A DNA stretch of 64,000 nucleotides from Eubacteriales bacterium (GCA_050309735.1 JBNRMS010000035.1:872-64871), one strand, 5' to 3'; numbered from the stretch's first letter, positions 49,624-64,000 are shown. Made by a program: numbers and translations. Notes: a model not told the origin generated them from the letters alone.

Positions 49624-50472
49624 TTAATTCAGAAGTTTTAAAACGGCTTTTACAGCGCCGTCAACCGTGTAGGGTATATTTTCAAGCGGGGCACCGAGCT
49701 CGCGCAGCTTTAGCATCAGGCGTGTGATCTCGGGAACGTCAAGCCCAGTGTCGCGTAGCTGGTCGGCGCGCGAGAAGATTTCGCTCGCCGTTCCGCTCAT
49801 GAGAATCCCGCCCTCGAAAAGCACAACTATCGAGTCGCACACAAGAGCCATGTCCTCCATGCTGTGGCTGACGATAATAACCGTCGCTCCTGTTCTCTCG
49901 CGGTAATTTCTCACCGCCGCGAATATTCTCTCCCGCCCCGCCGGGTCAAGACCGGCTGCCGGTTCGTCGAGCACAAGAACCTCCGGTCTCATCGCCATTA
50001 CACCCGCAATTGCCGCCCGCCTTTTCTCGCCGCCCGATAGGTCGAAGGGCGATTTTTTGAGCAGCTCGTGCTCAAGACCAACGATTTCCGCCGCCTCAAG
50101 CACCCTTTTTTGTATCTCGTCTTCTGTGAGCCCCATATTGCGGGGGCCGAAGGCGATATCCTTGGCGACGCTCTCCTCAAAGAGCTGATATTCAGGGTAC
50201 TGCATGACAAGTCCGACCCTGAATCTTATTTTCGATATTTCCTTGGGTCTTGCCCAGATGTCGACTCCGTCAAGCAGCACACGACCCGACTCGGGCTTCT
50301 CAAGTCCGTTGAGAAGCATCATCATGGTTGACTTCCCCGAGCCGGTGTGTCCGATAATGCCGGTGACCGTGCCTTCCTCTATTTCAAGGTCTACCCCTCG
50401 CAGCGCGAAGGTTTCGTAGGGCGTGCCCGAACTGTAGACATAATTAATTTTTTCAAGCTTTATTTTCGTCAT
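49624..50472 (-). CDS. ecfA2: energy-coupling factor transporter ATPase EcfA2
   Basis: GHTGSGKST Walker A, LSGGEKRR signature, LVLDEPAAGLD Walker B. Confidence 0.92.
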   Translation of the reverse strand: MTKIKLEKINYVYSSGTPYETFALRGVDLEIEEGTVTGIIGHTGSGKSTMMMLLNGLEKPESGRVLLDGVDIWARPKEISKIRFRVGLVMQYPEYQLFEESVAKDIAFGPRNMGLTEDEIQKRVLEAAEIVGLEHELLKKSPFDLSGGEKRRAAIAGVMAMRPEVLVLDEPAAGLDPAGRERIFAAVRNYRERTGATVIIVSHSMEDMALVCDSIVVLFEGGILMSGTASEIFSRADQLRDTGLDVPEITRLMLKLRELGAPLENIPYTVDGAVKAVLKLLN

Positions 50473-51341
50473 TTTACATCTCTGTTTGATAAATACTTTA
50501 TTATTTCGGCCGCAACTTCTTCCGGCGTGACCGGATTTCCGGGTACTTCAAATCCCCGGTGAGCAAGCTGGTCAATCAGCTCGACAGACTGCGGAACGTC
50601 AAGTCCGTGCTCGCGCAGGAACTGTGGCTTTGAGAATATCTCTTGCGGCCGAGCGTCGACAAGCAGTCTGCCACCGTCAAGGATTATAACCCTGTCTGCT
50701 CTCACAGCCTCATTCATATAATGCGTTATCATGATTACGGTTATCCCTTGCTCGCGATTGAGCTTTTCAACCGTCTGCATAACCTCCGCCCGCCCGCGTG
50801 GGTCGAGCATGGCGGTCGATTCGTCGAGTATTATGCACTCGGGGTTCATCGCCAACACACCGGCTATGGCAATTCGCTGCTTCTGTCCACCCGAGAGGCG
50901 ATGGGGCTCGTGTCTCTCGTAACCCTTCATTCCGACCGCCTCAAGCGCTTTGTCAACGCGACGGCGTATCTCGGGAGACGGAACACCAAGATTCTCGGGG
51001 CCGAAGGCAATATCCTCCTCGACTATGGTGGCGACAAGCTGATTGTCAGGATTCTGAAAAACCATCCCGACCTTTCGGCGAATGTCGAGTATATCTGAGT
51101 CGGTGAGGCTGGACGAGGTAATGTCCTTGCCGTCGATGAATATCCTTCCCGAGGCCGGGTCAAGTATCATGTTAAGGAGCTTAGCAAGGGTGGACTTTCC
51201 CGAACCGTTTCGGCCAATAACAGCGATATATTCGCCCCTTTTAATATTCAGGTTTATGTCGATAAGAGCCGGAGCCTCGCGGCCGTTCTCATCCTTATAA
51301 TTACAATACAGATTCTCTGTTCTGATGAAAAATTCTTGCAT
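50469..51341 (-). CDS. ecfA1: energy-coupling factor transporter ATPase EcfA1
   Basis: GRNGSGKST, LSGGQKQR and IILDESTAMLD motifs; start ATG 51341 after GGAAGG. Confidence 0.92.
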   Translation of the reverse strand: MQEFFIRTENLYCNYKDENGREAPALIDINLNIKRGEYIAVIGRNGSGKSTLAKLLNMILDPASGRIFIDGKDITSSSLTDSDILDIRRKVGMVFQNPDNQLVATIVEEDIAFGPENLGVPSPEIRRRVDKALEAVGMKGYERHEPHRLSGGQKQRIAIAGVLAMNPECIILDESTAMLDPRGRAEVMQTVEKLNREQGITVIMITHYMNEAVRADRVIILDGGRLLVDARPQEIFSKPQFLREHGLDVPQSVELIDQLAHRGFEVPGNPVTPEEVAAEIIKYLSNRDVK

Positions 51342-51421
51342 TTGATTTAACCTTCCGGGTGGCAACAGTCCCCGTTTCTCTATTTTGCTCCGAGCGCTCG
51401 CGCCCTCGTTTTACTTATATT

Positions 51422-52288
51422 TTATTTAAGTGCCGTCCAGCGCGCCGAGGCGCCTGCGGGCAAAAATCCTTTAGTTGTGCTCACCGGCAGGGCAAGCTCT
51501 CCGGCCTCGGTCACCCCGCCTCGGCGCGAGGTGATGCGCATATCAAGTATATATCTCATTGAAAGGGGCGAGAGGCCTGTGGTGTATGAATTTATAAGGA
51601 AAAACAAGGGTTTGTCCGAGAGAAGGCGCGAGCTCAGTTCGACAAGATTGTCGATATTTTCTTCAATTTTCCAGACCTCGCCCGACGGCCCCCGGCCGTA
51701 TGATGGCGGGTCCATTATCACCGCGTCATACTTTGAGCCTCGCCGAATCTCGCGTTCGACGAATTTTTTACAGTCATCTACAATATACCTTATCGGCGCC
51801 TCAGACAATCCTGAGAGCGCTGCATTTTCCTTTGCCTGTTGCACCATTCCACGTGCGGCGTCGACATGGCATACGCTCGCTCCCGCCGCGGCGGCTGCGA
51901 CTGTTGCGCCTCCGGTGTATGCGAAAAGATTAAGCAGCGTTATTTTCCGGCCGGAGTTTTTTATAAGTTCGCCAAACCAATCCCAGTTTGCGGCCTGCTC
52001 GGGGAAAAGCCCGGTGTGTTTGAATCCCATCGGACGCAGGGCAAATTTTAAATTTCGATAGCTTATATTCCATTGTTCGGGTAATTTTTGCTTTATCCAG
52101 GAACCTCCGCCGCTCTCAGAACGTCTGTATATAGCGTCGGCTCTTTTCCATTCGGGGGCGCGGCCACCGCCGCTCCATATCACCTGAGGGTCGGGGCGGA
52201 TGAGGATGTATTTCCCCCATCGTTCGAGCCGTTCGCCGCCTGCGGCGTCGATAAGCTCATATTCTTTCCATTTATCTGCTGTGAACAT
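51422..52288 (-). CDS. class I SAM-dependent RNA methyltransferase (RlmI/YwbD-like catalytic domain)
   Basis: LNLFAYTGGATVAAA (SAM motif I) and VIMDPPSYGRG (motif IV); start ATG 52288 after GGAG. Confidence 0.75.
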   Translation of the reverse strand: MFTADKWKEYELIDAAGGERLERWGKYILIRPDPQVIWSGGGRAPEWKRADAIYRRSESGGGSWIKQKLPEQWNISYRNLKFALRPMGFKHTGLFPEQAANWDWFGELIKNSGRKITLLNLFAYTGGATVAAAAAGASVCHVDAARGMVQQAKENAALSGLSEAPIRYIVDDCKKFVEREIRRGSKYDAVIMDPPSYGRGPSGEVWKIEENIDNLVELSSRLLSDKPLFFLINSYTTGLSPLSMRYILDMRITSRRGGVTEAGELALPVSTTKGFLPAGASARWTALK

Positions 52289-52310
52289 ATAATCTCCGTT
52301 TAATTCTATC

Positions 52311-52808
52311 CTATTTGTTATAATATCCTGCAATGCGCGAACAACCCGAGTGTGCATGGCAAATGGCGACGGCGAGCGCGTCGGCCGCGTCGTCCGGCCG
52401 GGGCGGCTCCTTTAGACTAAGCAGCAGGGTTACCATGCTGATCACCTGTTTTTTATCTGCCCGCCCGTATCCGACAACGGCCTGTTTAACCTGAAGGGGG
52501 GTGTATTCAGCAATGTCAAGACTTTTCTTCGCGCCTGCAAGGAGTATTACGCCCCGCGCTTGGCTGACACGGATGCCTGTGGTCTGGTTAGTATTCCAGA
52601 AAAGCTCCTCCACCGCCATTGCCGCGGGTCGATATTTTTGAATTATTGCTCCTAATTCATCGTATATTGCGGCAAGGCGCTCGTGTGTCGGCATGCTTGC
52701 CGAGGTTTCTATGACACCATAGTCAAGAACCCTAAAGCGCCCACCCGCAAAATCTATAACTCCCCAGCCGACAATCGCGATTCCGGGGTCAACACCTAAA
52801 ATAACCAA
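52311..52808 (-). CDS. ruvC: crossover junction endodeoxyribonuclease RuvC
   Basis: MVILGVDPG...AMAVEELF...DAADALAVAICHA catalytic acidic-residue pattern; TTG start. Confidence 0.92.
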   Translation of the reverse strand: MVILGVDPGIAIVGWGVIDFAGGRFRVLDYGVIETSASMPTHERLAAIYDELGAIIQKYRPAAMAVEELFWNTNQTTGIRVSQARGVILLAGAKKSLDIAEYTPLQVKQAVVGYGRADKKQVISMVTLLLSLKEPPRPDDAADALAVAICHAHSGCSRIAGYYNK

Positions 52809-52939
52809 ACTATTATGCCTTTCTTTATCAAGTGAAGTTCAGTCTCTCTTAGCATCACATGACAATACTCCATGATGGAGTATACCACACAATTCGAGCA
52901 AAGTCAATTATTTTATCCCAATTAATGCCTCGCCCGATG

Positions 52940-52968
52940 TTTACAATCGGGACTCGATATGATATAAT
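52940..52968 (+). promoter_or_regulatory. sigma-A promoter (extended -10) of repeat copy A
   Basis: TTTACA (52940-52945), 17-nt spacer, TGA-TATAAT (52963-52968). Confidence 0.6.
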
Positions 52969-53048
52969 ATACACGCCAGCAGGTTTCTTTGAAACCTGCG
53001 ATGTCGCAACGGCGTGCGAGCGCATGGGCGAAATTCACTTGCGACTAT
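52957..53048 (+). repeat. promoter-proximal structured leader module, copy A
   Basis: By manual alignment about 82 of 92 positions are identical to 62481-62572. Contains hairpin GCAGGTTTC-TTT-GAAACCTGC (52979-52999) and helix GTCGCAA-N29-TTGCGAC (53003-53045). Confidence 0.8.
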
Positions 53049-53088
53049 TATATAATTATATATATAATAGCCTGGAGGATAAAAATCA

Positions 53089-53283
53089 ATGAACATCGTA
53101 AAGCTTTCCCCCGGCGACAGCGTTGAGCTAAAAAAGCCGCATCCTTGCGGAGCTGTGCTCTTCCGGGTTGTGAGAGTGGGCTCTGAGGTTCGGATAATTT
53201 GCTCGGGCTGCGGAAGGGATATGAATGTCGACAGAATAAAGCTTGAAAAATCAATAAAAAAAGTTTTCGTAAAGGAACAGTAA
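53089..53283 (+). CDS. DUF951 family protein
   Basis: 64 aa with the pattern G..V.LKK.HPCG...F.V.R.G.DV...C..C. Confidence 0.75.
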   Translation: MNIVKLSPGDSVELKKPHPCGAVLFRVVRVGSEVRIICSGCGRDMNVDRIKLEKSIKKVFVKEQ

Positions 53284-53285
53284 AA

Positions 53286-56258
53286 ATGTCGTTTATTAAA
53301 CCGAAAGAAAAACATCTGACCCCGACTGTGCCGGGGGTGAAAAGCCGATTTTCCGGGATGGGTTATCTCTCGTTTGCCTTTATCATCCCGGTGATTATCA
53401 TGTATCTTATATACATCGCAATGGAGATACATCCCTTTGGTAACGGCTCGGTTCTCGTGCTTGACCTAAACGGCCAGTATGTTTATTTTTATGAGGCGCT
53501 GCGAAATTTTGTGTACGGAGACGCAAGCCTGCTCTATTCCTTCTCCCGCGCTCTCGGCGGAGATTTCATGGGTATTTATGCCTACTATGTCTCCAGCCCA
53601 TTTTCATATATAGTCTGCCTTTTCCCGCAGACAAGAATTCTTGAGGCACTGCTCGCAATATTCCTCTTGAAAACCGGCATCACCGGCTTAACATTCGGAT
53701 TTTATATACACAAAACCGGCAAGAGCAGAAGTAAAATCGCTACAGTCATTTTCTCCTGTATATATGCACTGACAGCATACGCAGTGGTTCAGCAGCACAA
53801 CTCGATGTGGATTGACGCGGTTATGTGGCTGCCTATTATCACCTACGGAATCGAACAGCTAATTAAATACGGGCGCTTTAAGATGTATGTCTTTTTCCTT
53901 GCGCTGACCATGTTAAGCAATTTCTATATCGGCTATATGGTCTGCTTCTGGTCGCTTGCCTATTTCTTTGTATATTATTTCTCCTATAACAAAAGCAAAA
54001 TCAACAACCCCTATAGCGAGAAGTTCCATTTCATAAAATCCTTCCTCCGCTTCGGTCTATTTTCGCTGCTCTCAGCGGGTATCGCCGCGGCAATTCTGCT
54101 CGCCGCTTACTATTCGCTCACCTTCGGCAAAACCGAATTTTCAAATCCCAGCTGGGCATTTAATCTTAAATTTGATGTAATAGAGCTGCTTGTCAAATTC
54201 CTTCCCGGGTCTTACGACACTGTGCGCCCCGAGGGGCTTCCCTTCGTTTATTGCGGTGTTCTGACGCTAATTCTAATCCCCGTCTATTTCCTCTCACCCA
54301 AATTCACCCCTCGGGAGAAAATTATGTCGGGCGCCCTTATCGCCTTCCTTACGCTCAGCTTTACAATCTCTGTCGCCGACCTTGTATGGCATGGTTTCCA
54401 GCGCCCGAACTGGCTAAACTACCGCTACAGCTTCATGCTTTGCTTCTTTCTTTTGACGCTGGCCTGCTCGGCCTTTGATGAGATAAAGTCGATAAGCTCA
54501 AAAACAATCTTTGCCATCTCTACGGCGCTTGCAGCTCTCGTGGTGTTTATCCAAACACTTGACCTTGATTTTGTCGACGACCTGCAAACAATCTGGTTCT
54601 CGCTCGCCGCAATTTCTGCCTACCTGATTATTCTTTGTCTCCTTAAAGTCACGCGTTTTCGCGAGGATATACTCCTTATACTTGTATTCATAGTCGTCTT
54701 TGAGCTTTTCGGAAACGGACTTACAAACGTGGTCGACCTCAACAGCGACGTCGTCTATTCAAACTACAGCGGCTATAACGACTTCCTCGCCGCATACCGC
54801 CCGGTGCTTGAAATACTTGAAGAGAAAGACGATTCTTTCTACCGCTATGAAAAAACAACTCACCGCAAGGTAAACGACAACATGGCGCTCGGCATCCGCG
54901 GCCTTTCAAACTCTACCTCAACGCTCAACGCCGACACGATCAGTTTCCTCTCCCGCATGGGATACTGCTCAAAGTCGCACTGGTCTAAATATGCCGGAGG
55001 CACGCCGGTCAACGACTCGCTGCTCGGGATTAAATATATTATAACAACCGATGATCTCTCTGATTATTATCCCTCATATTTTGAATATGGCGGATTTAAT
55101 GTTTGGCACAATAAATATGCTCTCTCGCTCGCCTATGGAGTTGATGAGAGGGTGAACGGAATTGTAGCCGATATATACGAAACCCCCTTTGATTATCTTA
55201 ACGCGCTGCTCACCGCAATGGTTGGCCAAGATGAGACGATACAGGTCTTTGTGCCTATACCGGTATCTGAAATTATAACAAACGATTTTTGCGCCAAATC
55301 CTTTATTGCAGGACACCATAAATACGCCAGAACCTCGGAGGAGCACGACGCGAATGTTTTCTACACCTTCATAGCTCCGAATGACCAAGAGGTGTTCTTT
55401 TATCTGCCAAGCGACTATCAGCGCGAGGTCGGCCTGAAGGTCAACGGCTCGTCCGCCGGCACCTTCTGGGGCGGGGATACCGACCGCATTATCTCGCTCG
55501 GAAGCTTTAGAGACGGTGAGTCTGTTCGTCTGACAATGACACTTAATTATATTGACCTTTATGTGAAAAACGGCTATAACTGCTTCTTCTATATTGACAT
55601 GGAAGCCTTCGAGGCTGTGATGTCAACGCTCTCGGAGATGCAGTATAACATCGAGGAATACACCGAGCACTCTTTTGAGGGAAGGCTTACCTCGCCGCGC
55701 GACAATCAAATAATCCAGACTTCCCTGCCCTATGACCAGGGCTGGAAGATTTATGTTGACGGAGAGCGGATTGATAGCTTTGAAACGCTTGATGCTCTGC
55801 TCGCCTTCCGCGTTGATTCGGGTGAGCATGAGATAAAAATGACATATATGCCCGATATGTTTGTTATCGGATTTATAATCAGCGGCGCTTGTATTCTAAT
55901 CTTCATTCTTCTCATAATCTTCGAGAAAAAGCTGCTCATCAAGAACCGCGAACTGCCGCCCGCGCCTATAATTGATATTGGCGCCACTAATGCCGCTGAT
56001 GTTGACGGCGACATCTATGACTATGATAATCCGAAGGACGATTACGATCCCGAGCCTCCCTGCAAGGCAGACGAAGACTACGGCGAAAACCTTTATATAG
56101 CACAGTACTACAATTCGCCCCCTGATTTTACGTCCGACGAAAACCTTCAGGAAGAGCAAATGCCTAAACAAAATCTTAGAAAATTCAAGCCGCGCAGCTC
56201 GTATAGGAGAGAGCTTGTCCGCGGCCGGCGCAACGCGAGGGCAAAAACGAAAAAATAA
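53286..56258 (+). CDS. YfhO-family polytopic membrane protein (putative glycosyl transferase of cell-envelope polymers)
   Basis: 990 aa with more than 12 TM helices in the N-terminal ~480 aa, a large extracytoplasmic domain, a terminal TM helix and a charged tail. Starts 3 nt after the DUF951 gene. Confidence 0.8.
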   Translation: MSFIKPKEKHLTPTVPGVKSRFSGMGYLSFAFIIPVIIMYLIYIAMEIHPFGNGSVLVLDLNGQYVYFYEALRNFVYGDASLLYSFSRALGGDFMGIYAYYVSSPFSYIVCLFPQTRILEALLAIFLLKTGITGLTFGFYIHKTGKSRSKIATVIFSCIYALTAYAVVQQHNSMWIDAVMWLPIITYGIEQLIKYGRFKMYVFFLALTMLSNFYIGYMVCFWSLAYFFVYYFSYNKSKINNPYSEKFHFIKSFLRFGLFSLLSAGIAAAILLAAYYSLTFGKTEFSNPSWAFNLKFDVIELLVKFLPGSYDTVRPEGLPFVYCGVLTLILIPVYFLSPKFTPREKIMSGALIAFLTLSFTISVADLVWHGFQRPNWLNYRYSFMLCFFLLTLACSAFDEIKSISSKTIFAISTALAALVVFIQTLDLDFVDDLQTIWFSLAAISAYLIILCLLKVTRFREDILLILVFIVVFELFGNGLTNVVDLNSDVVYSNYSGYNDFLAAYRPVLEILEEKDDSFYRYEKTTHRKVNDNMALGIRGLSNSTSTLNADTISFLSRMGYCSKSHWSKYAGGTPVNDSLLGIKYIITTDDLSDYYPSYFEYGGFNVWHNKYALSLAYGVDERVNGIVADIYETPFDYLNALLTAMVGQDETIQVFVPIPVSEIITNDFCAKSFIAGHHKYARTSEEHDANVFYTFIAPNDQEVFFYLPSDYQREVGLKVNGSSAGTFWGGDTDRIISLGSFRDGESVRLTMTLNYIDLYVKNGYNCFFYIDMEAFEAVMSTLSEMQYNIEEYTEHSFEGRLTSPRDNQIIQTSLPYDQGWKIYVDGERIDSFETLDALLAFRVDSGEHEIKMTYMPDMFVIGFIISGACILIFILLIIFEKKLLIKNRELPPAPIIDIGATNAADVDGDIYDYDNPKDDYDPEPPCKADEDYGENLYIAQYYNSPPDFTSDENLQEEQMPKQNLRKFKPRSSYRRELVRGRRNARAKTKK

Positions 56259-56309
56259 AATCTAAAAATTAGTTCAGTTTGAGCCGCAAAAGGCGGCATG
56301 GAGATAAAA

Positions 56310-56945
56310 ATGTTTTATTATATCAGCGGCAGCCTTGTGCTGCTTGAGCCCGGCGCGGCCGTGATTGATGCGGGTGGGGTGGCTTATCGGATGTCGATAA
56401 GCCAGACAACCTATGAAGCACTACCCAAAACCACCCTGCGCGATGCGCCCCAGCGCGCCACTCTCTACACATATCTTGTGGTGCGCGAGGATGGCGTTGA
56501 GTTGTTCGGTTTTGCCTCGCTTGAAGAGCTGTCGGCATATCGGATGCTTCTGACCGTCTCGGGTGTCGGCCCCAAGGTGGCTCTGTCGGTGCTATCGCAG
56601 CACACACCCGAGAAATTTGCGCTCGCCGTTCTGACAGAAGATAAAAAGACGCTCTCGCAGGCGTCGGGTGTTGGCCCCAAAACAGCCGCAAGGATTATAC
56701 TTGAACTCAAAGATAAACTTGCCTCCTCGGCACTCGGCGTCGGGGCCGCCGATTCGGATAACGCGCTCGAGGGCGGAGCGCCGACAGCGGGCGGAAAACG
56801 CAGCAAAACCGCCGACGCAGCCGACGCACTGATAGTGCTCGGATATTCACGTTCCGAAGCGCTCGCCGCGCTCAAGGATATTGATGTGGTAACGCTGCCG
56901 CTTGAGGAAATTATCAGACTTGCGCTCAAAAAGCTGATTAAATGA
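56310..56945 (+). CDS. ruvA: Holliday junction branch migration complex subunit RuvA
   Basis: MFYYISG start and two HhH motifs (GVGPKVA, GVGPKTA); ORF track start is 56298. Confidence 0.92.
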   Translation: MFYYISGSLVLLEPGAAVIDAGGVAYRMSISQTTYEALPKTTLRDAPQRATLYTYLVVREDGVELFGFASLEELSAYRMLLTVSGVGPKVALSVLSQHTPEKFALAVLTEDKKTLSQASGVGPKTAARIILELKDKLASSALGVGAADSDNALEGGAPTAGGKRSKTADAADALIVLGYSRSEALAALKDIDVVTLPLEEIIRLALKKLIK

Positions 56946-56980
56946 AGGGCTCGCTACACTTGAAAGGAATGGTTATTTAA

Positions 56981-58042
56981 ATGACGAACGACGACCTTGA
57001 TTTTGAGAATCGGTTGGTATCAAGTTCATATACCCCCGAGGACACCGAAACCGACTATTCTCTGCGCCCCCGTCGTCTTGATGAGTATATAGGACAGGAA
57101 AAAGCGAAGGAGAATCTCCGGGTTTATATAAACGCCGCAAAGCAGCGGGGCGACACTCTCGACCATGTTCTGCTCTACGGCCCTCCCGGGCTCGGGAAAA
57201 CCACGCTGTCCTCAATTATAGCAAACGAGATGGAGGTCAATCTCCGCATAACCTCAGGGCCGGCAATTGAGAAGCAGGGTGACCTTGCTGCGATACTTAC
57301 AAATCTCTCGCCCGGAGACATACTTTTTATCGACGAGATTCACCGCCTGCCGACCTCGGTCGAGGAAATTCTATACCCCGCGATGGAGGACTATGCCCTT
57401 GACATCATAATCGGCAAAGGTCCCTCTGCGCGGAGCATCAGAATTGATCTTCCCCGCTTCACACTCATCGGTGCCACAACCCGTGCCGGGCAGCTCGCCT
57501 CGCCACTGCGCGACAGATTTGGAGTTATCATGCGTCTTGAGCTTTACTCGCCCGAGGAGCTTGCTACAATAGTCAGCCGTAGCGCCGGGATACTAAAACT
57601 CGCCATAAGCCCCGACGGCGCACAGGAGATAGCCTCGCGCTCGCGCGGCACGCCTCGGATAGCAAACCGCCTTCTCAAGCGGGTGCGTGACTTTGCCGAG
57701 GTTAAGGGCGACGGCACAATAAGCCACCAAATAGCAAACTACGCGCTCGGCTGCCTTGAGATAGACCCGCTCGGACTTGACAATATCGACCGCAGAATGC
57801 TTACGACTATAATTAAATTTTACGACGGAGGCCCGGTCGGACTTGACACACTTGCCGCCACCATAGGCGAGGAATCGGTGACGCTTGAGGATGTCTACGA
57901 GCCTTACCTTATGCAGATAGGCTTTCTGAACAGAACCCCGCGCGGTCGCTGTGCCACAAGGCTGGCATATGAGCATCTTCGCCTTCCATATCGGAATGTT
58001 ACCGAGAATGGAGAGCAGATTAGAATCAATGCGGACGAATGA
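56981..58042 (+). CDS. ruvB: Holliday junction branch migration DNA helicase RuvB
   Basis: GPPGLGKTT Walker A, FIDEIHRL Walker [12 protein letters not shown] sensor motif. Confidence 0.95.
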
Positions 58043-58159
58043 ATTTTCTGTCATGGTTTTACACAGTAAAAGATTATAGATTCAAAGTAAGTATTAACAA
58101 TAGGTTTGCCGCAAAGAAAGAATATAAGGTTAAAATATTACGATTATAGCAGCTAAGGT

Positions 58160-58425
58160 GTGTATTTCATAGCAATTTGCACACAAACCCGAATCCATTT
58201 ATTCGGTGAGGTTTCCGCCGTAGGGGATGCCCTATGTGGCATCCCGCAAATCCCCCCGCAATTTATCCCTCACCCAAATGGTTCCTCAAAAATGATTGAA
58301 CGATGGTTATATGGCAACGCTCTTACCACGACCACAGCATCCGTGATGGAGAAGATTATAAAAACCATTTGAAATACATAGACGAAAACCCCGCAAGATG
58401 GCAGGAAGATAGTTATTATACCTAA
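58160..58425 (+). pseudogene. decayed IS200/IS605-type (Y1 / RayT-like) transposase gene remnant
   Basis: One frame gives YFIAICTQTRIHLFGEV (N-terminal family motif). Another frame (58303-58425) gives WQRSYHDHSIRDGEDYKNHLKYIDENPARWQEDSYYT (C-terminal family motif). The middle of the gene is missing and the frames are broken. Confidence 0.65.
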
Positions 58426-58457
58426 GAATAAAAATTTTATATTAGGCGGTGTTTGAT

Positions 58458-59228
58458 ATGTTAAACCAATCTCAATTTCCCATATTGGAATTTGATTCAA
58501 ACAGAAAAGCCAAGATAGAGCCATCAAACTTTATCAAAAAAAAGCAGGTGCCAAAGGCGTGTGTCATCACTTTTTTCAAGGAAGTGCTGCGCCGGAAATT
58601 TGAGGACGGCGAACTGAAACAAATCGGCACGCTTCGCTCGGAAACAGTTGATCTTCCGATTTATGAGACAGAATATAACGGTCGCGCGGCGGGTCTTGTC
58701 GGAGGATTTGTGGGAGCCGCGGGCTCGGCGGGACTGCTTGAAGAATTAATCGCCATGGGATTTGAAAAATTCATCGTATGCGGTGGTGCTGGAGTTTTGA
58801 AGAAGGATATCCAAGTGGGTCATCTAATTCTGCCCGTTTCCGCCGTGAGAGACGAAGGGGTTTCATATCATTATATAGAACCCTCGCGCGAGGTCGAATG
58901 TAATCCAGACGCGATAGATGCGATTGAAAAAGCATTGAATAAAGAAAAAATCCCGTTCATCAAAGCAAAAACCTGGACAACCGATGCCCTATACAGGGAA
59001 ACCGAAGCTAAAATAGCAAAAAGAGTTTCGGAAGGCTGCGTCACCGTTGAAATGGAAGCGGCGGCATTCTTCGCTGTTTCCAAATTTAGAAATGTTTTTT
59101 TAGGACAAATTTTGTACGGCGGAGACGATTTAAGCGGAGTTGAATGGGATGACCGTGATTGGAACAGCAGAGGGGAAATAAGATATAATCTGGTAGAGCT
59201 GTGTTTGAAAATAGCCACAGGTTTATAA
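58458..59228 (+). CDS. nucleoside phosphorylase family protein (PNP/UDP-1 fold)
   Basis: GGFVGAAGSAG, RDEGVSYHY and VEMEAAAFFAV motifs; ATG 58458 (ORF track GTG 58449). Confidence 0.75.
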   Translation: MLNQSQFPILEFDSNRKAKIEPSNFIKKKQVPKACVITFFKEVLRRKFEDGELKQIGTLRSETVDLPIYETEYNGRAAGLVGGFVGAAGSAGLLEELIAMGFEKFIVCGGAGVLKKDIQVGHLILPVSAVRDEGVSYHYIEPSREVECNPDAIDAIEKALNKEKIPFIKAKTWTTDALYRETEAKIAKRVSEGCVTVEMEAAAFFAVSKFRNVFLGQILYGGDDLSGVEWDDRDWNSRGEIRYNLVELCLKIATGL

Positions 59229-59268
59229 TAATTTACCTTTACAAATAAACATAATTCAGCCTTCGCCC

Positions 59269-60204
59269 TCAAGTCAGCACCGGCGCTGTAAAGAGCAATT
59301 CCCTGATGCCGGCATATTTCTGAAAATACCCTGCGTTGTCCGGACCCGCACCTTGCTCGCCGCAGTACACCGTGTAGGAAGGTATGCCGAGTACACTGCT
59401 GCACCAGCCAACAAGGCTTCCCCGAGCCTCCTCGCTCCTAATTTCGACAAGCGGCTTGCCGCTGATGCGCGAGAGCGACTGACCTATGCTCTTTCCCCTC
59501 GGTATGGCCTCGTCCTCTATGTATGCCACGCTCTCAGGGCCGCACTCAAGGCTGAGCAACAGCCTGATTTTGTCGTTATAGCGCAAATACCCCGAAAGCG
59601 CGCTTGTCTCGGGCTCAGACTCGGGGTGAACCCCCGCGTATCCCGACGGCGCACCGCAGGTCTTTGCTCCGTCCTGCTTGTTATATTCTATGTAGTCATA
59701 ATTAAAATTTCGCCCAAGGTCAACTCCCCGCGCGTTTGCCGCCCAGCGCGAGATGTCACCCCCTCCGTTCATTGCCATAATGCGCGGGTGGAGCGGGTTG
59801 TCCTCGGCGATGCCCTCGGTGACGTATGACACGCCGTCGGGATTCAGTATGGGCAGAATATGTATCGTCCGGGTCGCCTCAAGACTCTTAAGATTCAGGT
59901 TGTAGATCCGGCGATTGTTTTTTCTTGTCTCGCAGTATTCGTTTATAAAACGCAGTATCAGCGAGCAGGTTATATAGTCGGCTCCGCTTATGCATCCGAC
60001 ATAAAGAAGCTCTTTTTTGCCGCTTCCGAAGCTTATCATGGGTATGCTTTTCCCAAGGACGGTTTGCCCTATTGAGGACACATTTATATTGTCATACCGC
60101 AAAGACAGGATGTCAAGACACTCCATCATTTCCTCGCAGCATGTAATTCGCTCGTAATCAAGAATTCTTTTATCCTTGTCAATACCCTGTCGGTTTGTGT
60201 TCAT
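59269..60204 (-). CDS. M14-family carboxypeptidase-like protein (gamma-D-Glu-meso-DAP peptidase-like), catalytic residues apparently substituted
   Basis: M14 landmarks ILPILNPDGV, RGVDLGRNF and HPESEPET are present. However, the HxxE zinc motif reads SGAD, the third-ligand position reads LSLECG and the TxEL catalytic Glu position reads TVYCG. Confidence 0.7.
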   Translation of the reverse strand: MNTNRQGIDKDKRILDYERITCCEEMMECLDILSLRYDNINVSSIGQTVLGKSIPMISFGSGKKELLYVGCISGADYITCSLILRFINEYCETRKNNRRIYNLNLKSLEATRTIHILPILNPDGVSYVTEGIAEDNPLHPRIMAMNGGGDISRWAANARGVDLGRNFNYDYIEYNKQDGAKTCGAPSGYAGVHPESEPETSALSGYLRYNDKIRLLLSLECGPESVAYIEDEAIPRGKSIGQSLSRISGKPLVEIRSEEARGSLVGWCSSVLGIPSYTVYCGEQGAGPDNAGYFQKYAGIRELLFTAPVLT

Positions 60205-60298
60205 TGCGCTTCTCCTTAATAGTTATACTTTATACATTATATTATGTTCCCGAAGCCCGAATAATGCAGCTATAAATTCCGAATGCCGAGGTGTAAAA

Positions 60299-61048
60299 AT
60301 GCAATCAACATACGACCCAAAACTCAAAACCAAACTGACAATAACAATGACCATATTGGCATTTGTGATATTTTCTTTTTATTCTTTTGTCTTAGTGCCG
60401 CTGAGTATCAAGGCCGCAACCGACGTTTCCTTCATGGTTCCGCTGCTTTCCGACCTTCTGCCATACCTTAAATATCTAACCGAAATAGCCGGAATGCTCC
60501 TTATGTACTCCTTTATAATATATGCGGCATACCGCTTCGGGAAATCTGGTGCCAGCCTTTATGCAGCTCTTTTTCTAGTTCTCGTGCTTTATGAATATAT
60601 CACCTCGCATCTGGTGACCTATATCCTCGCCGGCCGCTTACCAGATTTTTCCGATTTCTTATTTGATTTTATGTACATGGTGGCAATACCCGTGCTCATC
60701 ATTTGTGCAATACACGCGATAATACTTCTTATTATATATGTAGTTTTCAAAAACACAGGTGATTCTTCGGACAAGGCCGCAATCCTCCCCTTCAAAAAGC
60801 TTTACAGTCGTGAAAATCACCTTCAGCGAGTGGCCTTATATATTTCCACCCTCTTTGCGGCAAGCCAGATAGTAAATCTTATAATAACCGACCTCTCAAT
60901 CGGCGCCCCGTCAAATCTGGGCGAGCTTTTATGGATGGTTGTTTCGTATTTGACCTCCTTACTAATGCTGCCCGCGTCCTATTTATTTATTATATATATC
61001 TTAATTTCGCTAAACAACAAGGATATCCGAATGAAATACGACGTGTGA
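60299..61048 (+). CDS. hypothetical polytopic membrane protein
   Basis: ATG 60299 after GAGGTG (ORF track start 60176 overlaps the divergent gene). About 6 hydrophobic helices; no family recognised. Confidence 0.6.
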   Translation: MQSTYDPKLKTKLTITMTILAFVIFSFYSFVLVPLSIKAATDVSFMVPLLSDLLPYLKYLTEIAGMLLMYSFIIYAAYRFGKSGASLYAALFLVLVLYEYITSHLVTYILAGRLPDFSDFLFDFMYMVAIPVLIICAIHAIILLIIYVVFKNTGDSSDKAAILPFKKLYSRENHLQRVALYISTLFAASQIVNLIITDLSIGAPSNLGELLWMVVSYLTSLLMLPASYLFIIYILISLNNKDIRMKYDV

Positions 61049-61131
61049 TATTAAAGAATTATTCATCAGATGTGAATAAGCATCCCCACCTGCCATAACG
61101 CAAGGTTATGCGATTTATTAAAAAACTGTAT

Positions 61132-61160
61132 TTGAATTATCCTCCCCGAAGTGATATACT
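61132..61160 (+). promoter_or_regulatory. sigma-A promoter candidate for purA
   Basis: TTGAAT (61132-61137), 17-nt spacer, TGA-TATACT (61155-61160). Confidence 0.55.
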
Positions 61161-61189
61161 GATGTTATCATAAGGGGAGGATTAATATT

Positions 61190-62473
61190 ATGATCAAAGC
61201 TATTGTGGGAGGCTGCTGGGGCGACGAGGGCAAGGGCAAAATCACAGATTTGCTTGGAGCCGACGCCGATATTGTAGTCAGATTTCAGGGGGGCGCCAAT
61301 GCCGGACACACCATAATCAACGAATATGGGAAATTCGCGCTTCATCTTCTTCCGTCGGGTGTTTTTCACAGAGGCGTGACAAATATACTCGCAAGCTCGG
61401 TCGCTTTTGATGCTGACATGTTCTTCGGAGAACTTGCAACACTTGGGAGCCGGGGGGTTCCGCGCCCCGAGATACTTGTCTCCTCGCGCGCGCAGCTCCT
61501 CCTTCCCTTTCATAAACTACAGGATAAACTTGAAGAAGAGCGCCTCGGGCGGCACAGTTTCGGCTCCACAAAGTCTGGAATTGCCCCCTTTTATTCTGAC
61601 AAATATGCAAAGAGAAATATACAAATCTCCGAGCTCTACTCGCATGGTCTCCCCGATAAGGTAGAACGGTTGGCTGAGGAAAAGAATATATATTTCAAAG
61701 CTTTTTACGGTGTTGAGAAAGCCCTTGACGCCGCGGCGTTGCTCGATAACCTCAGGGAGCTCGGCGAGCGGCTTGAGCCGCTGCTATGCGACTGCCCGCA
61801 TTACATGAGCGAGGCGCAAAGAGAGGGCAAGAAAATACTTCTTGAGGGACAGCTCGGCGCGCTGCGCGACCCCGACAACGGGATATATCCCTATGTAACC
61901 TCGTCCTCACCGCTCGCGGGATATGGCAGCGTTAGCCTTGGAATCCAACCGAATGCGATAAATTCTATTGTGGCGGTGGTCAAGGGATACTCAACCTGCG
62001 TTGGCGCAGGCCCCTTTGTCGGCGAGCTTTCGGGTCCTGTCGCAGAGGAACTGAGGCTCCGTGGCGGCTCTGACGGTGAATTCGGCGCCACAACCGGTCG
62101 GCCGCGCCGAATGGGATGGTTCGACGCCGTTGCCGCAAGATACGGGTGTATGCTTCAAGGCGCTACTGAGGTTGCGCTGACACTTATTGATGTCCTCGGT
62201 TATCTTGAGAGGATACCGGTCTGTACCCAATATAAAATCGGTGACAGGACAACTCGCAATTTTCCCGAAACTCACCTACTCGAGTTTGCCGAGCCTGTTT
62301 ATGAGTATCTTGACGGCTGGAAATGCGATATTGCAGGCGTTACTGCCTATGAAGGCCTTCCTGTCGCTGCTAAAAAATATGTCGACTTTATAGAAAATCA
62401 GCTCGGTTTGCCTATAACATTAATCTCAAACGGTCCCCGCCGCGAACAAATACTAATTCGCGGTTGCAAGTAA
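61190..62473 (+). CDS. purA: adenylosuccinate synthase
   Basis: WGDEGKGK P-loop, GGANAGHT and TTGRPRRMGWFD motifs. Confidence 0.95.
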   Translation: MIKAIVGGCWGDEGKGKITDLLGADADIVVRFQGGANAGHTIINEYGKFALHLLPSGVFHRGVTNILASSVAFDADMFFGELATLGSRGVPRPEILVSSRAQLLLPFHKLQDKLEEERLGRHSFGSTKSGIAPFYSDKYAKRNIQISELYSHGLPDKVERLAEEKNIYFKAFYGVEKALDAAALLDNLRELGERLEPLLCDCPHYMSEAQREGKKILLEGQLGALRDPDNGIYPYVTSSSPLAGYGSVSLGIQPNAINSIVAVVKGYSTCVGAGPFVGELSGPVAEELRLRGGSDGEFGATTGRPRRMGWFDAVAARYGCMLQGATEVALTLIDVLGYLERIPVCTQYKIGDRTTRNFPETHLLEFAEPVYEYLDGWKCDIAGVTAYEGLPVAAKKYVDFIENQLGLPITLISNGPRREQILIRGCK

Positions 62474-62492
62474 AAATATCATATGATATAAT
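62464..62492 (+). promoter_or_regulatory. sigma-A promoter (extended -10) of repeat copy B
   Basis: TTGCAA (62464-62469, inside the purA 3' end), 17-nt spacer, TGA-TATAAT (62487-62492). Confidence 0.6.
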
Positions 62493-62615
62493 ATACACAT
62501 TGGCAGCTTTCGAAGAAAGCTGCGATGTCGCAACGGCGTGCGAGCGCATGGGAGAAATTCACTTGCGACTATGGTATTATATACACATTGGCAGCTTTCT
62601 TTGAAAGCTGCGATG
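62481..62615 (+). repeat. promoter-proximal structured leader module, copy B plus a partial tandem reiteration
   Basis: 62481-62572 matches copy A, with hairpin GCAGCTTTC-GAA-GAAAGCTGC at 62503-62523 and helix GTCGCAA/TTGCGAC at 62527-62569. 62575-62615 repeats TATTATATACACATTG plus hairpin GCAGCTTTC-TTT-GAAAGCTGC. Confidence 0.8.
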
Positions 62616-62677
62616 CCGAAGCTGCTAAAGAGGTTCCCTGCCAATATATTCTCCGTCCCCGACAAGGAGGAGTACGC

Positions 62678-63586
62678 ATGAACATAAGCTATGACTGGTA
62701 CAGAATTTTTGCCGCTGTCGCCGAATGCCAAAGCATTACGGCGGCTGCAGAGCGGCTATTTATCTCGCAGCCCGCAGTCAGCCGGTCTATCCGCCAGCTT
62801 GAGGAGACGCTTGGCTGCCGGCTTTTCGAGCGGGTTCCAAAGGGCGTCAGGCTGACACGCGAGGGGGAGCTGCTCTTCTCTCATGTGTCGGACGGGATAA
62901 GCGCTTTTTCTTACGGCGAGCGCAAGCTGATTTCTATGATGCGTCTTGATGTTGGCGAGATACGAATCGGCGCGAGCGACATGACACTTGAATTCTGCCT
63001 TCTTCCCCACCTTGAGGCCTTCCACGCGCTTTATCCGGGCGTGAAAATAAGCATAACCAATCAACCGACCCCGACAACGCTCTCACTTCTCGGTGAGGAA
63101 AAGATTGATTTCGGTGCGGTCAGCGAGCCCTTTGAGTTTCTGCCCGCGAATGAGATTGAGGTCAGACGGGTGCGAGAAATACGGGATATTTTTATCGTCG
63201 GCAGAAGCCTTGCCGATAAATTTCGCGGCGCAGTTAAAATATCAGAACTCCCATCAGACCAACTTATAATGCTTGAAAAAAACACGAGTACCCGCGCCTA
63301 TCTTGATGCCGAGTTCCGAGAGCGAGGATTTTTAGCCGAACCAAAGTTTGAGCTTTCGACAAGTGCTCTAATTGTGCGGTTTGCCGCGCGCAATCTTGGT
63401 GTCGGCTGCGTTGTAGATGACTTTGCAAGAGCTGCACTCGCGAGCGGCGAGGTGAGCGAGATTGATATTTCAGACCCGCTGCCTCCGCGGCATATCTCCA
63501 TAGTCCGCCGAAAGTCATACTATTCGCGAGCCGCTCTTGCACTTTTGAAAATGATATTATCAGGCACGACAGAATCCGACAAATAA
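62678..63586 (+). CDS. LysR-family transcriptional regulator
   Basis: N-terminal wHTH SITAAAERLFISQPAVSRSIRQLEE and a C-terminal LysR substrate-binding fold. ATG 62678 lies after AAGGAGG; ORF track start 62525 lies in the repeat. Confidence 0.9.
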   Translation: MNISYDWYRIFAAVAECQSITAAAERLFISQPAVSRSIRQLEETLGCRLFERVPKGVRLTREGELLFSHVSDGISAFSYGERKLISMMRLDVGEIRIGASDMTLEFCLLPHLEAFHALYPGVKISITNQPTPTTLSLLGEEKIDFGAVSEPFEFLPANEIEVRRVREIRDIFIVGRSLADKFRGAVKISELPSDQLIMLEKNTSTRAYLDAEFRERGFLAEPKFELSTSALIVRFAARNLGVGCVVDDFARAALASGEVSEIDISDPLPPRHISIVRRKSYYSRAALALLKMILSGTTESDK

Positions 63587-63652
63587 GCAGGGTTGGTCAT
63601 AATATTATAACGACATGGTAATATTTAAAAATTATTGTCGTCTCGTGATGCC

Positions 63653-63694
63653 CAAAAAACACCCCGGTGAGAAGCAAACTGTTTCTCACCGGGG
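63653..63694 (-). terminator. intrinsic terminator after the ABC ATPase gene
   Basis: CCCCGGTGAGAA / TTCTCACCGGGG 12-bp stem followed on the minus strand by GTTTTTT. Confidence 0.85.
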
Positions 63695-63727
63695 TACACT
63701 TATTCCTTGGTACGTTATATCAATTTC

Positions 63728-64000
63728 TCAAAGCACAGCTTTGAGAAAGCTTTTGGTTCTATCATTGCTCGGTCTGTCGAATATTTCGGCGGGTGTTCCC
63801 TCCTCGGTAATTCTCCCGTCGCTCATGAAGATTATCCGGTCGGCAACCTCGCGGGCAAAACCCATCTCGTGTGTGACTATCACCATTGTCATGCCCTCAT
63901 TCGCAAGGTCTCGGATGAGATCAAGCACCTCGCCGACCATCTCAGGGTCGAGCGCCGAGGTCGGCTCGTCGAAGAGCATCACCTTCGGGTTCATAGCAAG
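63728..64000 (-). CDS. polar amino-acid ABC transporter ATP-binding protein (GlnQ-like), 5' part outside window
   Basis: [14 protein letters not shown] (Walker B/D-loop) and VTHEMGFA (H-loop). The frame stays open to the right edge. Confidence 0.88.

Follow-up and report, generated by a model that had tools for sequence, protein, structure and literature searches.

Copies A and B of a leader module within the window, the whole 64,000-nucleotide stretch of DNA analyzed here, are two members of an 88-bp repeat family with ~100 copies, restricted to one lineage. The repeat body lies directly 3′ of the pre-existing -10 box of sigma-70-type promoters. From sequence comparison, we consider it very probable that the repeat is an insert that duplicated within this lineage alone and that native promoters transcribe it into a 5′ leader whose hairpin lies close to the end. 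The original prediction had the module occurring twice, as a regulatory leader or a small RNA; instead, searching the same genome with two rounds of nhmmer gives 113 hits, which group into 76 loci, and the supposed two-copy leader is one sample of a repeat that is confined to one species and often tandem.

Anatomy of the Window Copies

Copies A (52957–53048) and B (62481–62572) lie exactly where they were predicted, and the estimated ~10 differences between them are exactly 10 mismatches over the 92-mer (82/92 identical in alignment). Their longest identical run is 33 nt, and the A versus B identity is 88.6%. Because they share this run, recombination between the two copies is conceivable. All features of the copies described below are on the + strand.

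Copy A is sited in a divergent intergenic region. The - strand gene upstream of it (52311–52808), which from its sequence we take to be RuvC, has orthologs 70%–78% identical in congeners. The first gene 3′ of the copy encodes DUF951 (53089–53283, + strand; 64 aa; Pfam PF06107, 8e-21), with its ATG 41 nt past the end of the unit. The -35 hexamer of the DUF951-yfhO promoter, TTTACA (52940–52945), is native and lies in unique DNA outside the repeat. The left extended -10 box, TGATATAAT (52960–52968), is where repeat homology starts, and it is the native -10 box. With 17-nt spacing this promoter has 11/12 matches plus the TG. The unit itself spans 52959–53047 (model positions 1–89; nhmmer 85.6 bits, covariance model 103 bits) and contains hairpin 1, GCAGGTTTC-TTT-GAAACCTGC, with a 9-bp stem and a 3-nt loop (52979–52999), followed by module B, GTCGCAA-N29-TTGCGAC, with its invariant inverted 7-mers (53003–53045). 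A second -10-like box, the right box TTATATAAT, follows directly 3′ of the unit (53048–53056), and an additional TATAAT lies 3′ of it (53063–53068).

Copy B has the same layout. Its -35 hexamer, TTGCAA (62464–62469), is again in unique DNA and stands at 17-nt spacing from a -10 box inside the unit, also TGATATAAT (62484–62492), with 10/12 matches plus the TG; the extended -10 promoters described for both copies are thus present. The unit (62483–62571, model 1–89; nhmmer 95.1 bits, covariance model 115 bits) is the top-scoring copy genome-wide, is near the family consensus, and is 95% identical to copies on contigs C42, C21, and C14. It contains hairpin 1, GCAGCTTTC-GAA-GAAAGCTGC (62503–62523), and module B (62527–62569). 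The fifth stem pair of hairpin 1 is G:C in copy A and C:G in copy B, in agreement with the original prediction, as are the stem and loop lengths. The partial reiteration noted after copy B is likewise real: a unit at 62571–62628 (model 1–58; nhmmer 40.2 bits) has a degenerate box, TGGTATTAT, and another hairpin 1 (62591–62611), and is truncated within module B. The gene for a LysR-type regulator follows (62678–63586, + strand), with its ATG 49 nt past the end of the array.

A Head-to-Tail Repeat Family

The window's own assembly comprises 1.86 Mb in 82 contigs, at 50% G+C. BLAST of the 92-mer against it returned ~70 matches, many spaced exactly 88 nt; the nhmmer hits likewise have a period of 88, and a covariance model of the unit finds 101–105 copies. 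The unit is thus 88–89 bp long and present in ~100 copies, of which 80 nhmmer hits are essentially full-length, with the consensus ATGATATAATATACACATTGGCAGCTTTCGAAGAAAGCTGCGATGTCGCAACGGCGAGGTAACGCATGGGAGAAATTCACTTGCGACTA. It opens with an extended -10 box (A-TGn-TATAAT); after ~10 nt comes hairpin 1, a palindrome of 21 nt, and then the 46-nt module B. The first half of the 29-nt stretch within module B differs among sub-families. One copy, at C31:6703, has no palindrome, with exactly that piece missing.

Loci hold single units or arrays, always head-to-tail and of up to four units, and many arrays finish in a truncated unit that ends at model position 43, 55, 58, 65, or 70. Arrays total 8.8 kb, or 0.47% of the genome; copy number and array lengths are underestimates in this fragmented 82-contig assembly, because repeats sit at several contig ends. 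At these contig ends the repeat breaks the assembly. Mean identity is 92% between adjacent units and 77% between non-adjacent ones, which argues that arrays grow or are homogenized locally. The units have no terminal inverted repeats: the best end-to-end alignment is 4 nt, below the shuffled mean.

To place the arrays relative to genes, repeats were masked, genes were called by a crude longest-ORF procedure, and 75 loci were classified. The array is oriented toward a same-strand downstream gene at 62 of the 75, and the remaining 13 arrays face no gene start. Divergent intergenic regions hold 33 arrays versus 6 in convergent ones, and in co-directional regions 24 arrays are sense versus 7 antisense. 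Most start codons lie 20–55 nt past the end of the array (median ~40 nt), and Shine-Dalgarno (SD) sequences sit in unique DNA, outside the units. The downstream genes are unrelated: besides DUF951 and the LysR regulator they include dxs, gyrB, glyA, HU, trpS, a 5′-3′ exonuclease, a DAG-kinase-like gene, rimM, and two tRNA genes. The description of a portable module upstream of unrelated genes is supported. Among intergenic regions having a gene-directed TGnTATAAT, the repeat is present in 41 of 151.

The Repeat Body Lies at Native -10 Boxes

The -35 hexamers associated with the repeat are in unique DNA. At a spacing of 16–18 nt, a -35 with at least 4/6 matches precedes 57% of first units versus 12% of background, and one with at least 5/6 matches precedes 31% versus 2%; of the internal units, 2/36 have a -35 with at least 4/6. 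We compared seven loci with their congener counterparts: ruvC/DUF951 (copy A), purA/LysR (copy B), ProRS, a DtxR-like gene and two others, and tRNA-Gln. In all seven comparisons the same -35 recurs in the congeners, together with (A)TGnTATAAT in the position that the left box occupies here; an unrelated short leader follows the congener box, and the repeat body is absent. At locus A, TTTACA at 17-nt spacing is conserved in three congeners (G003, G004, and G005), with TGATATAAT in the same place and no body after it. At locus B, the LysR ortholog of G005, which starts MNISYDWYKIF, lies behind a native TTGCCT-17-TGGTATAAT promoter. The congener promoters at target loci share (T)ATGnTATAAT with the 5′ end of the unit, and that at locus B shares ATGGTATAATATAC. 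The original prediction had counted the promoter as part of the module. From these comparisons it appears instead to be native, not brought by the module, with the unit supplying only a -10 box, since the -35 and TGnTATAAT pre-exist in congeners at both window loci.

For ProRS and tRNA-Gln, the right box stands as far from the gene as the native -10 does in the congeners, and the leaders are colinear; the loci therefore differ from their congener counterparts by precisely one 88-bp period, which lies between two boxes. Not all events are such clean one-period insertions, because part of the native leader has been lost, shortened, or replaced at loci A and B and at loci on contigs C30 and C31.

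Arrays are usually followed by a further, decaying copy of the box. TGnTATAAT, with at most one mismatch, directly follows 25 of 52 terminal full units (48%) versus 0.09% of background, and its free position n matches that of the unit's own box in 19/24 cases (permutation mean 9.9). The share with a perfect TATAAT falls from 78% among left boxes to 58% among internal and 28% among right ones. A test for target-site duplication over 16 nt was not significant (p = 0.135), with only the box and its free position correlating, and the second box could equally well be a truncated next unit as a target duplication.

Hairpin 1 Is Maintained and the Module B 7-mers Are Invariant

Structure statistics were taken from 44 distinct full copies. 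In these, 97.5% of hairpin 1 cells pair, and the loop sequence varies freely. Two pairs covary strongly: at 25:37, 24 copies have C:G and 18 have G:C; at 29:33, 25 have C:G and 17 have U:A. All four combinations of their states are present. When independent paired changes were counted on a tree built from non-hairpin columns, which is too weakly resolved to make the count reliable, the two pairs gave 16 and 15 versus ~21 and 20 with shuffled labels. Among the unit's helices, covariation is confined to hairpin 1. Hairpin-templated correction is another possible source of paired changes where the DNA forms a perfect palindrome, as it does at hairpin 1. Because of this, the double change between copies A and B, originally put forward as a sign of selection on structure, and its counterparts across the family show that hairpin 1 is maintained but do not single out RNA as the selected molecule.

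The 7-bp outer helix of module B is essentially invariant, its two 7-mers being conserved in 99.7% of cells. It is present in copies A and B as described and, because it is invariant, provides no covariation evidence and neither supports nor contradicts pairing. The proposed inner helix, CGTGC/GCATG, is not supported: it is specific to one sub-variant, 57% of cells pair across the 44 copies, and there is no two-sided change. An alternative 3-bp helix was considered and is no better supported.

Folding energies are lower than those of shuffled sequence (z = -2.0 to -4.9). In predicted folds hairpin 1 is the robust feature; the module B helix is in the minimum-energy fold of copy A and absent from that of copy B. 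We found neither a terminator after copy A or B nor an SD-sequestering platform at these copies on the + strand. A short terminated small RNA is unlikely because there is no such terminator.

Module B has some likeness to tRNA. Against 36 tRNAs, its best local alignment scores 23 versus a shuffled maximum of 17.5 ± 2.3 (p ~0.03) and is to the 5′ half of tRNA-Gln; one element lies directly upstream of tRNA-Gln on contig C22. The likeness is weakened because the congener tRNA-Gln reads GTAGCC instead of GTCGCC. That module B may derive from the 5′ half of tRNA-Gln is a lead only.

Distribution beyond the Source Genome

A search of the genome and its relatives, as proposed with the original prediction, brought further copies in the genome itself and none in 40 relatives: the covariance model has no true matches in 10 congeners or in 30 further family- and order-level genomes. 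One hit of 29.7 bits, in congener G007, is spurious, being the pyrH-frr terminator hairpin on the opposite strand. A pattern scan with the exact pattern of the 21 most conserved bases, using one genome per species, gave only two chance-level matches of at most 13 bits among 185,579 species genomes, and at most 21 bits among JGI metagenome contigs. These matches, two of them in MAGs (one Pseudomonadota, one Oscillospiraceae) and the others in six metagenome contigs, reach 13–21 bits versus 50–115 bits for true copies, and we regard them as chance. The collections scanned may leave out the records of the window's own genome. An Rfam cmscan of 50000–64000 on both strands returned 0 matches at E up to 1, which bears out the view that the module matches no known riboswitch class.

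The DUF951 leader of congener G003 has a 17-mer, GGCAGGTTTTGAAAAAA, identical to one hairpin 1 variant, and this leader is the best match to the family profile by nhmmer among 25 congener sequences, although a weak one (10 bits, over the first 39 positions). Copy A may thus lie at or beside the founder locus, or be an old site. Congener DUF951 leaders were also considered as decayed copies of the unit; they give no covariance-model match at E up to 10, and this is a lead only.

A Probable Promoter-Preserving Insert and Its Alternatives

The preferred explanation is a promoter-preserving insert. In each event a single 88-bp period would come to lie between two -10 boxes. The spacing of the -35 to its box on the upstream side, and of the box to the leader on the downstream side, would not change, so the insertion would be tolerated. 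The leftmost box would be the working promoter, which would place the body in the 5′ leader. The left box, which retains the native -35, is by far the best conserved and thus the one under selection, and on this ground the body is probably transcribed; both the start site and transcription of the body are predicted from promoter geometry and box conservation. With a start ~7 nt past the box, hairpin 1 is predicted to begin ~4 nt from the 5′ end. Stem-loops at such a position protect mRNAs from 5′-end-dependent decay, and by analogy hairpin 1 might act as a 5′ mRNA stabilizer. Most probably the module serves as a constitutive leader and insulator whose effect is neutral to mildly useful, and not as a ligand sensor. 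Arrays would grow via local duplication, and the candidate routes to new promoters are an enzyme that recognizes hairpins and a TATAAT target, or ectopic recombination through box homology.

The second of these routes, passive spread without a dedicated enzyme, is possible but less likely than not. Rare ectopic recombination or template switching would use the 11–14 nt of (T)ATGnTATAAT(A) common to all of the genus's strong promoters, with a box-body-box donor converting a single-box recipient and unequal local exchange then expanding arrays. Even without the repeat, congener promoters at the target loci have (T)ATGnTATAAT in common with the 5′ end of the unit (at locus B, ATGGTATAATATAC), and the box-body-box layout with its matched n position is in keeping with such exchange. 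Neighboring units are much more alike than distant ones, array 3′ ends are ragged (model 43, 55, 58, 65, and 70), native leaders have been replaced, and the copies, with a mean identity of 77%, are old, so that a low rate would be enough. However, RecA-dependent exchange between distant loci normally needs homology well above 9–14 nt, so the shared box is too short for the usual reaction. Moreover, this lineage acquired the repeat at 76 loci, yet ten congeners with the same promoter consensus acquired it nowhere, and the invariance of the module B 7-mers is left unexplained. An enzymatic route, in which the repeat is a non-autonomous IS200/IS605-like or REP/RAYT-like element and a Y1 (HUH) transposase joins it to the 3′ side of TATAAT in the non-template strand, possibly while the open promoter complex is melted, is favored by that invariance, seen among copies that are otherwise 77% identical, but on balance appears unlikely. 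It fits the lack of terminal inverted repeats, the hairpins located toward both ends of the unit, the single orientation on an asymmetric target, the exact placement after TATAAT at 7/7 loci, and stem-conserving changes with a free loop, as in REPINs. The genome also has one intact Y1_Tnp gene (C29:5935–6432; PF01797, 27 bits versus a cut-off of 23), and the window a remnant of a paralogous Y1 (IS200/RayT-like) transposase gene (58267–58425, + strand; 57% identity to aa 111–164, two stops), whereas the gene is absent from 8/10 congeners and present only as a pseudogene in one. We considered the C29 gene as the mobilizer and found no physical link to the repeat: its flanks are unrelated, with no unit, GTCGCAA, TTGCGAC, or similar hairpin within ~1 kb. 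Also counting against a Y1 enzyme, congener G010 lacks the repeat despite its 11 Y1 matches, of which several are fragments or pseudogenes; arrays are head-to-tail rather than inverted pairs; and native leaders are replaced at several loci. IS200/IS605 elements make no target duplication, so the second box after the unit is a further difficulty, though it could be the element's own right end. This single-strand route concerns the manner of spread and is compatible with a promoter-preserving insert. Its strongest form, a self-propagating element that targets the -10 of active promoters (for example, the non-template strand of the open complex) through Y1/HUH-type insertion of a replacement extended -10 box and a 5′ hairpin, such that the gene stays expressed, is decidedly unlikely.

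Two further explanations concern function. The module B 7-mers or the palindrome could be the site of one trans-acting protein or RNA that co-regulates the repeat-bearing genes. The conservation of both 7-mers in 99.7% of cells agrees with a shared operator, as does their location, since a factor bound there, past the -10 box but ahead of the ribosome-binding site, would stop transcription or make it pause, and Neisseria REP2 offers a precedent (PMC3184786). We nevertheless judge a regulon improbable: the downstream genes are mixed housekeeping genes and tRNAs with no common theme, copies per promoter range from 0.5 to 4, the half-sites are 36 nt apart center to center, which is unusual for a dimeric regulator, and no candidate regulator was identified. 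A ligand-sensing riboswitch, a conserved cis-regulatory leader, or a small-RNA gene family is very improbable. Although a promoter lies directly upstream, the stable hairpin has paired changes, and folding energy is below that of shuffled sequence (the z values above), the Rfam scan at E up to 1 is empty, the unit is found in one species only, and the orthologous congener leaders have no repeat. Tandem and truncated copies upstream of unrelated genes, covariation in a simple hairpin alone, the poorly conserved inner helix, and a + strand with neither terminator nor SD-sequestering platform all point the same way.

Recognizing a promoter-preserving insert removes a false riboswitch or small RNA candidate, and the repeat could mislead automated searches for regulatory RNAs in this lineage. 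It also means that about a quarter (41/151) of the perfect extended -10 promoters in one small gut-type Clostridia genome acquired the same 88-bp insert at the -10 box. Should targeting lie behind its placement, the repeat would display an insertion specificity that is new and would exemplify, in nature, insertion that leaves the promoter intact; should recombination lie behind it, a shared promoter consensus would by itself be enough to start a family of repeats. Were self-propagating -10 targeting true, the repeat would be the first described mobile element with the promoter -10 box itself as its target.

Comparison with Known Systems

The closest architecture, by analogy, is that of Neisseria REP2 and Borrelia IR-A/IR-B. 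Like the unit described here, these are intergenic, have no terminal inverted repeats, carry two internal stem-loops near the 5′ end together with promoter elements, lie directly upstream of unrelated genes and oriented toward them, and number in the tens within one lineage. For these repeats, an origin from a promoter and 5′ UTR duplicated to other sites has been proposed, and REP2 genes are reported to be induced on host-cell contact (PMC3184786). REP2 is 120–150 bp and includes a ribosome-binding site and, in fusion with the gene, an ATG (Delihas 2011, PMC3184786; Morelle et al. 2003). In contrast, our unit is 88 bp, stops ~40 nt before the native ribosome-binding site, has no ATG, supplies just the -10 box next to a native -35, and forms head-to-tail arrays. 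The two have no sequence similarity, and the host here is of a different, Clostridia-type phylum.

Matus-Garcia, Nijveen, and van Passel (2012; commentary PMC3575422) define putative mobile promoters as sequences that precede non-paralogous genes of a single genome and are 80% or more identical over 50 nt or more, a purely operational class in which most families are pairs. Copies A and B, 82/92 identical and upstream of DUF951 and LysR, with more than 70 further loci, are of this kind. Whereas those families are mostly pairs, this one has ~100 members, and beyond the definition it has a defined -10 anchoring, an orientation rule, and a tandem habit.

REP/BIME and REPIN sequences are described as mobilized by RAYT (Y1) transposases (Bertels and Rainey 2011, in PMC3575422; PMC8049555). 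They resemble this repeat in having a short palindrome with paired stem changes, many intergenic copies in one lineage, and a RayT-like Y1 gene in the genome. REPs lie mostly at gene 3′ ends, in inverted pairs or alternating clusters, and flank the RAYT gene, whereas this repeat is head-to-tail, at promoters, co-oriented with genes, and absent from the flanks of the Y1 gene. Its geometry is that of IS200/IS605 elements: subterminal hairpins, no inverted ends, a fixed target 5′, and one orientation. A cognate TnpA with element ends matching the repeat was not found in the genome, where the sole Y1 gene has unrelated flanks. Correia elements of Neisseria (CREE/NEMIS; Siddique et al. 2011, as cited in PMC3575422) are also small non-coding repeats, which carry or create promoters and enter 5′ UTRs. 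They are characterized by 26-bp terminal inverted repeats, a TA target duplication, and insertion in either orientation, none of which is seen for this unit; in particular, it lacks the terminal inverted repeats of classical MITEs and Correia elements.

The 5′-terminal stem-loops that stabilize the ompA and papA mRNAs of E. coli and the aprE and ermC mRNAs of B. subtilis (reference list of PMC3997798) offer the nearest analogy for hairpin 1, a stable hairpin with a free loop that is predicted to begin ~4 nt from the 5′ end. Those stabilizers are single-gene features, whereas hairpin 1 is part of a repeat.

Repeat Units at the DUF951 and LysR Leaders

The DUF951 gene lies downstream of copy A of the 88-bp repeat, and the orthologous leader in the congener G003 (L047, corresponding to window positions 52969–53088) carries GGCAGGTTTTGAAAAAA, a sequence identical to one variant of hairpin 1 (the 21-nt palindrome of the repeat), 16 nt 3′ of its TGATATAAT box. 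In the DUF951 leaders of the congeners G004 and G005, GGCAGGTTTTG precedes a longer GCAGG...CCTGC hairpin. The repeat family could have its founder site, or an ancient one, at the DUF951 locus. The 3′ TTGCGA of copy A also forms, with 18 nt and a downstream TATAAT, a promoter-like site (53039–53068; 10/12 matches) just 5′ of the DUF951 Shine-Dalgarno sequence, so that locus A has three consecutive −10-like boxes.

In the LysR leader (window 62571–62645), the second of two 21-bp palindromes, read separately as part of a possible operator pair, is instead hairpin 1 of the truncated second repeat unit. The two palindromes of this leader are self-complementary, so in the predicted fold of the RNA each can also pair with the other. 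Downstream of purA in G004 (L060/L063), the LysR orthologue apparently lacks its N-terminal part, with the tblastn match beginning at about residue 79, and we saw no promoter or start after purA.

Variant Copies and Array Surroundings

One copy in the window's own assembly, G000 (C31:6703–6768), lacks exactly the 21-nt palindrome, with the junction reading …ACACATT directly followed by CGATATCGCAACGG…; precise loss of hairpin 1 is therefore possible. Palindromes are often lost precisely.

A further unit lies directly 5′ of tRNA-Gln(UUG) (C22:818–1000, minus strand), where the 20–22 nt from the box to tRNA base 3 are present twice, flanking the repeat body on both sides. Module B of the repeat loosely resembles the 5′ half of this tRNA, which has GTCGCC in G000 versus GTAGCC in congeners.

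Directly 3′ of three head-to-tail arrays is TGTTATAAT(G/T)AGGTAATAG (downstream flanks from C36:28589, C37:1517, and C56:28642), and directly 5′ of two is GGGGTGAGG(C/T)AAGTGCAGAAAC (upstream flanks C8:11646–11675 and C56:28915–28944). These short repeated sequences suggest that G000 has further repeat families or composite units. Arrays also lie ∼1 kb or less from several contig ends (C21:164, C39:25, C37:359, C77:426, C22:912, C18:1161, and C71:1243). The repeat probably breaks the assembly, so that the copy number and array lengths given here are too low.

A Y1 Transposase Remnant between the Two Copies

The spacer downstream of ruvB, between copies A and B, contains a remnant of a Y1 transposase gene (window 58267–58425, plus strand) with two stops. 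An intact 166-residue paralogue (C29:5935–6432) scores above the Pfam Y1_Tnp cut-off. Among ten congeners, eight have no Y1 match, one has a pseudogene only, and G010 has 11. The remnant is RayT/IS200-like and retains the C-terminal WQRSYHDH...YIDENP motif.
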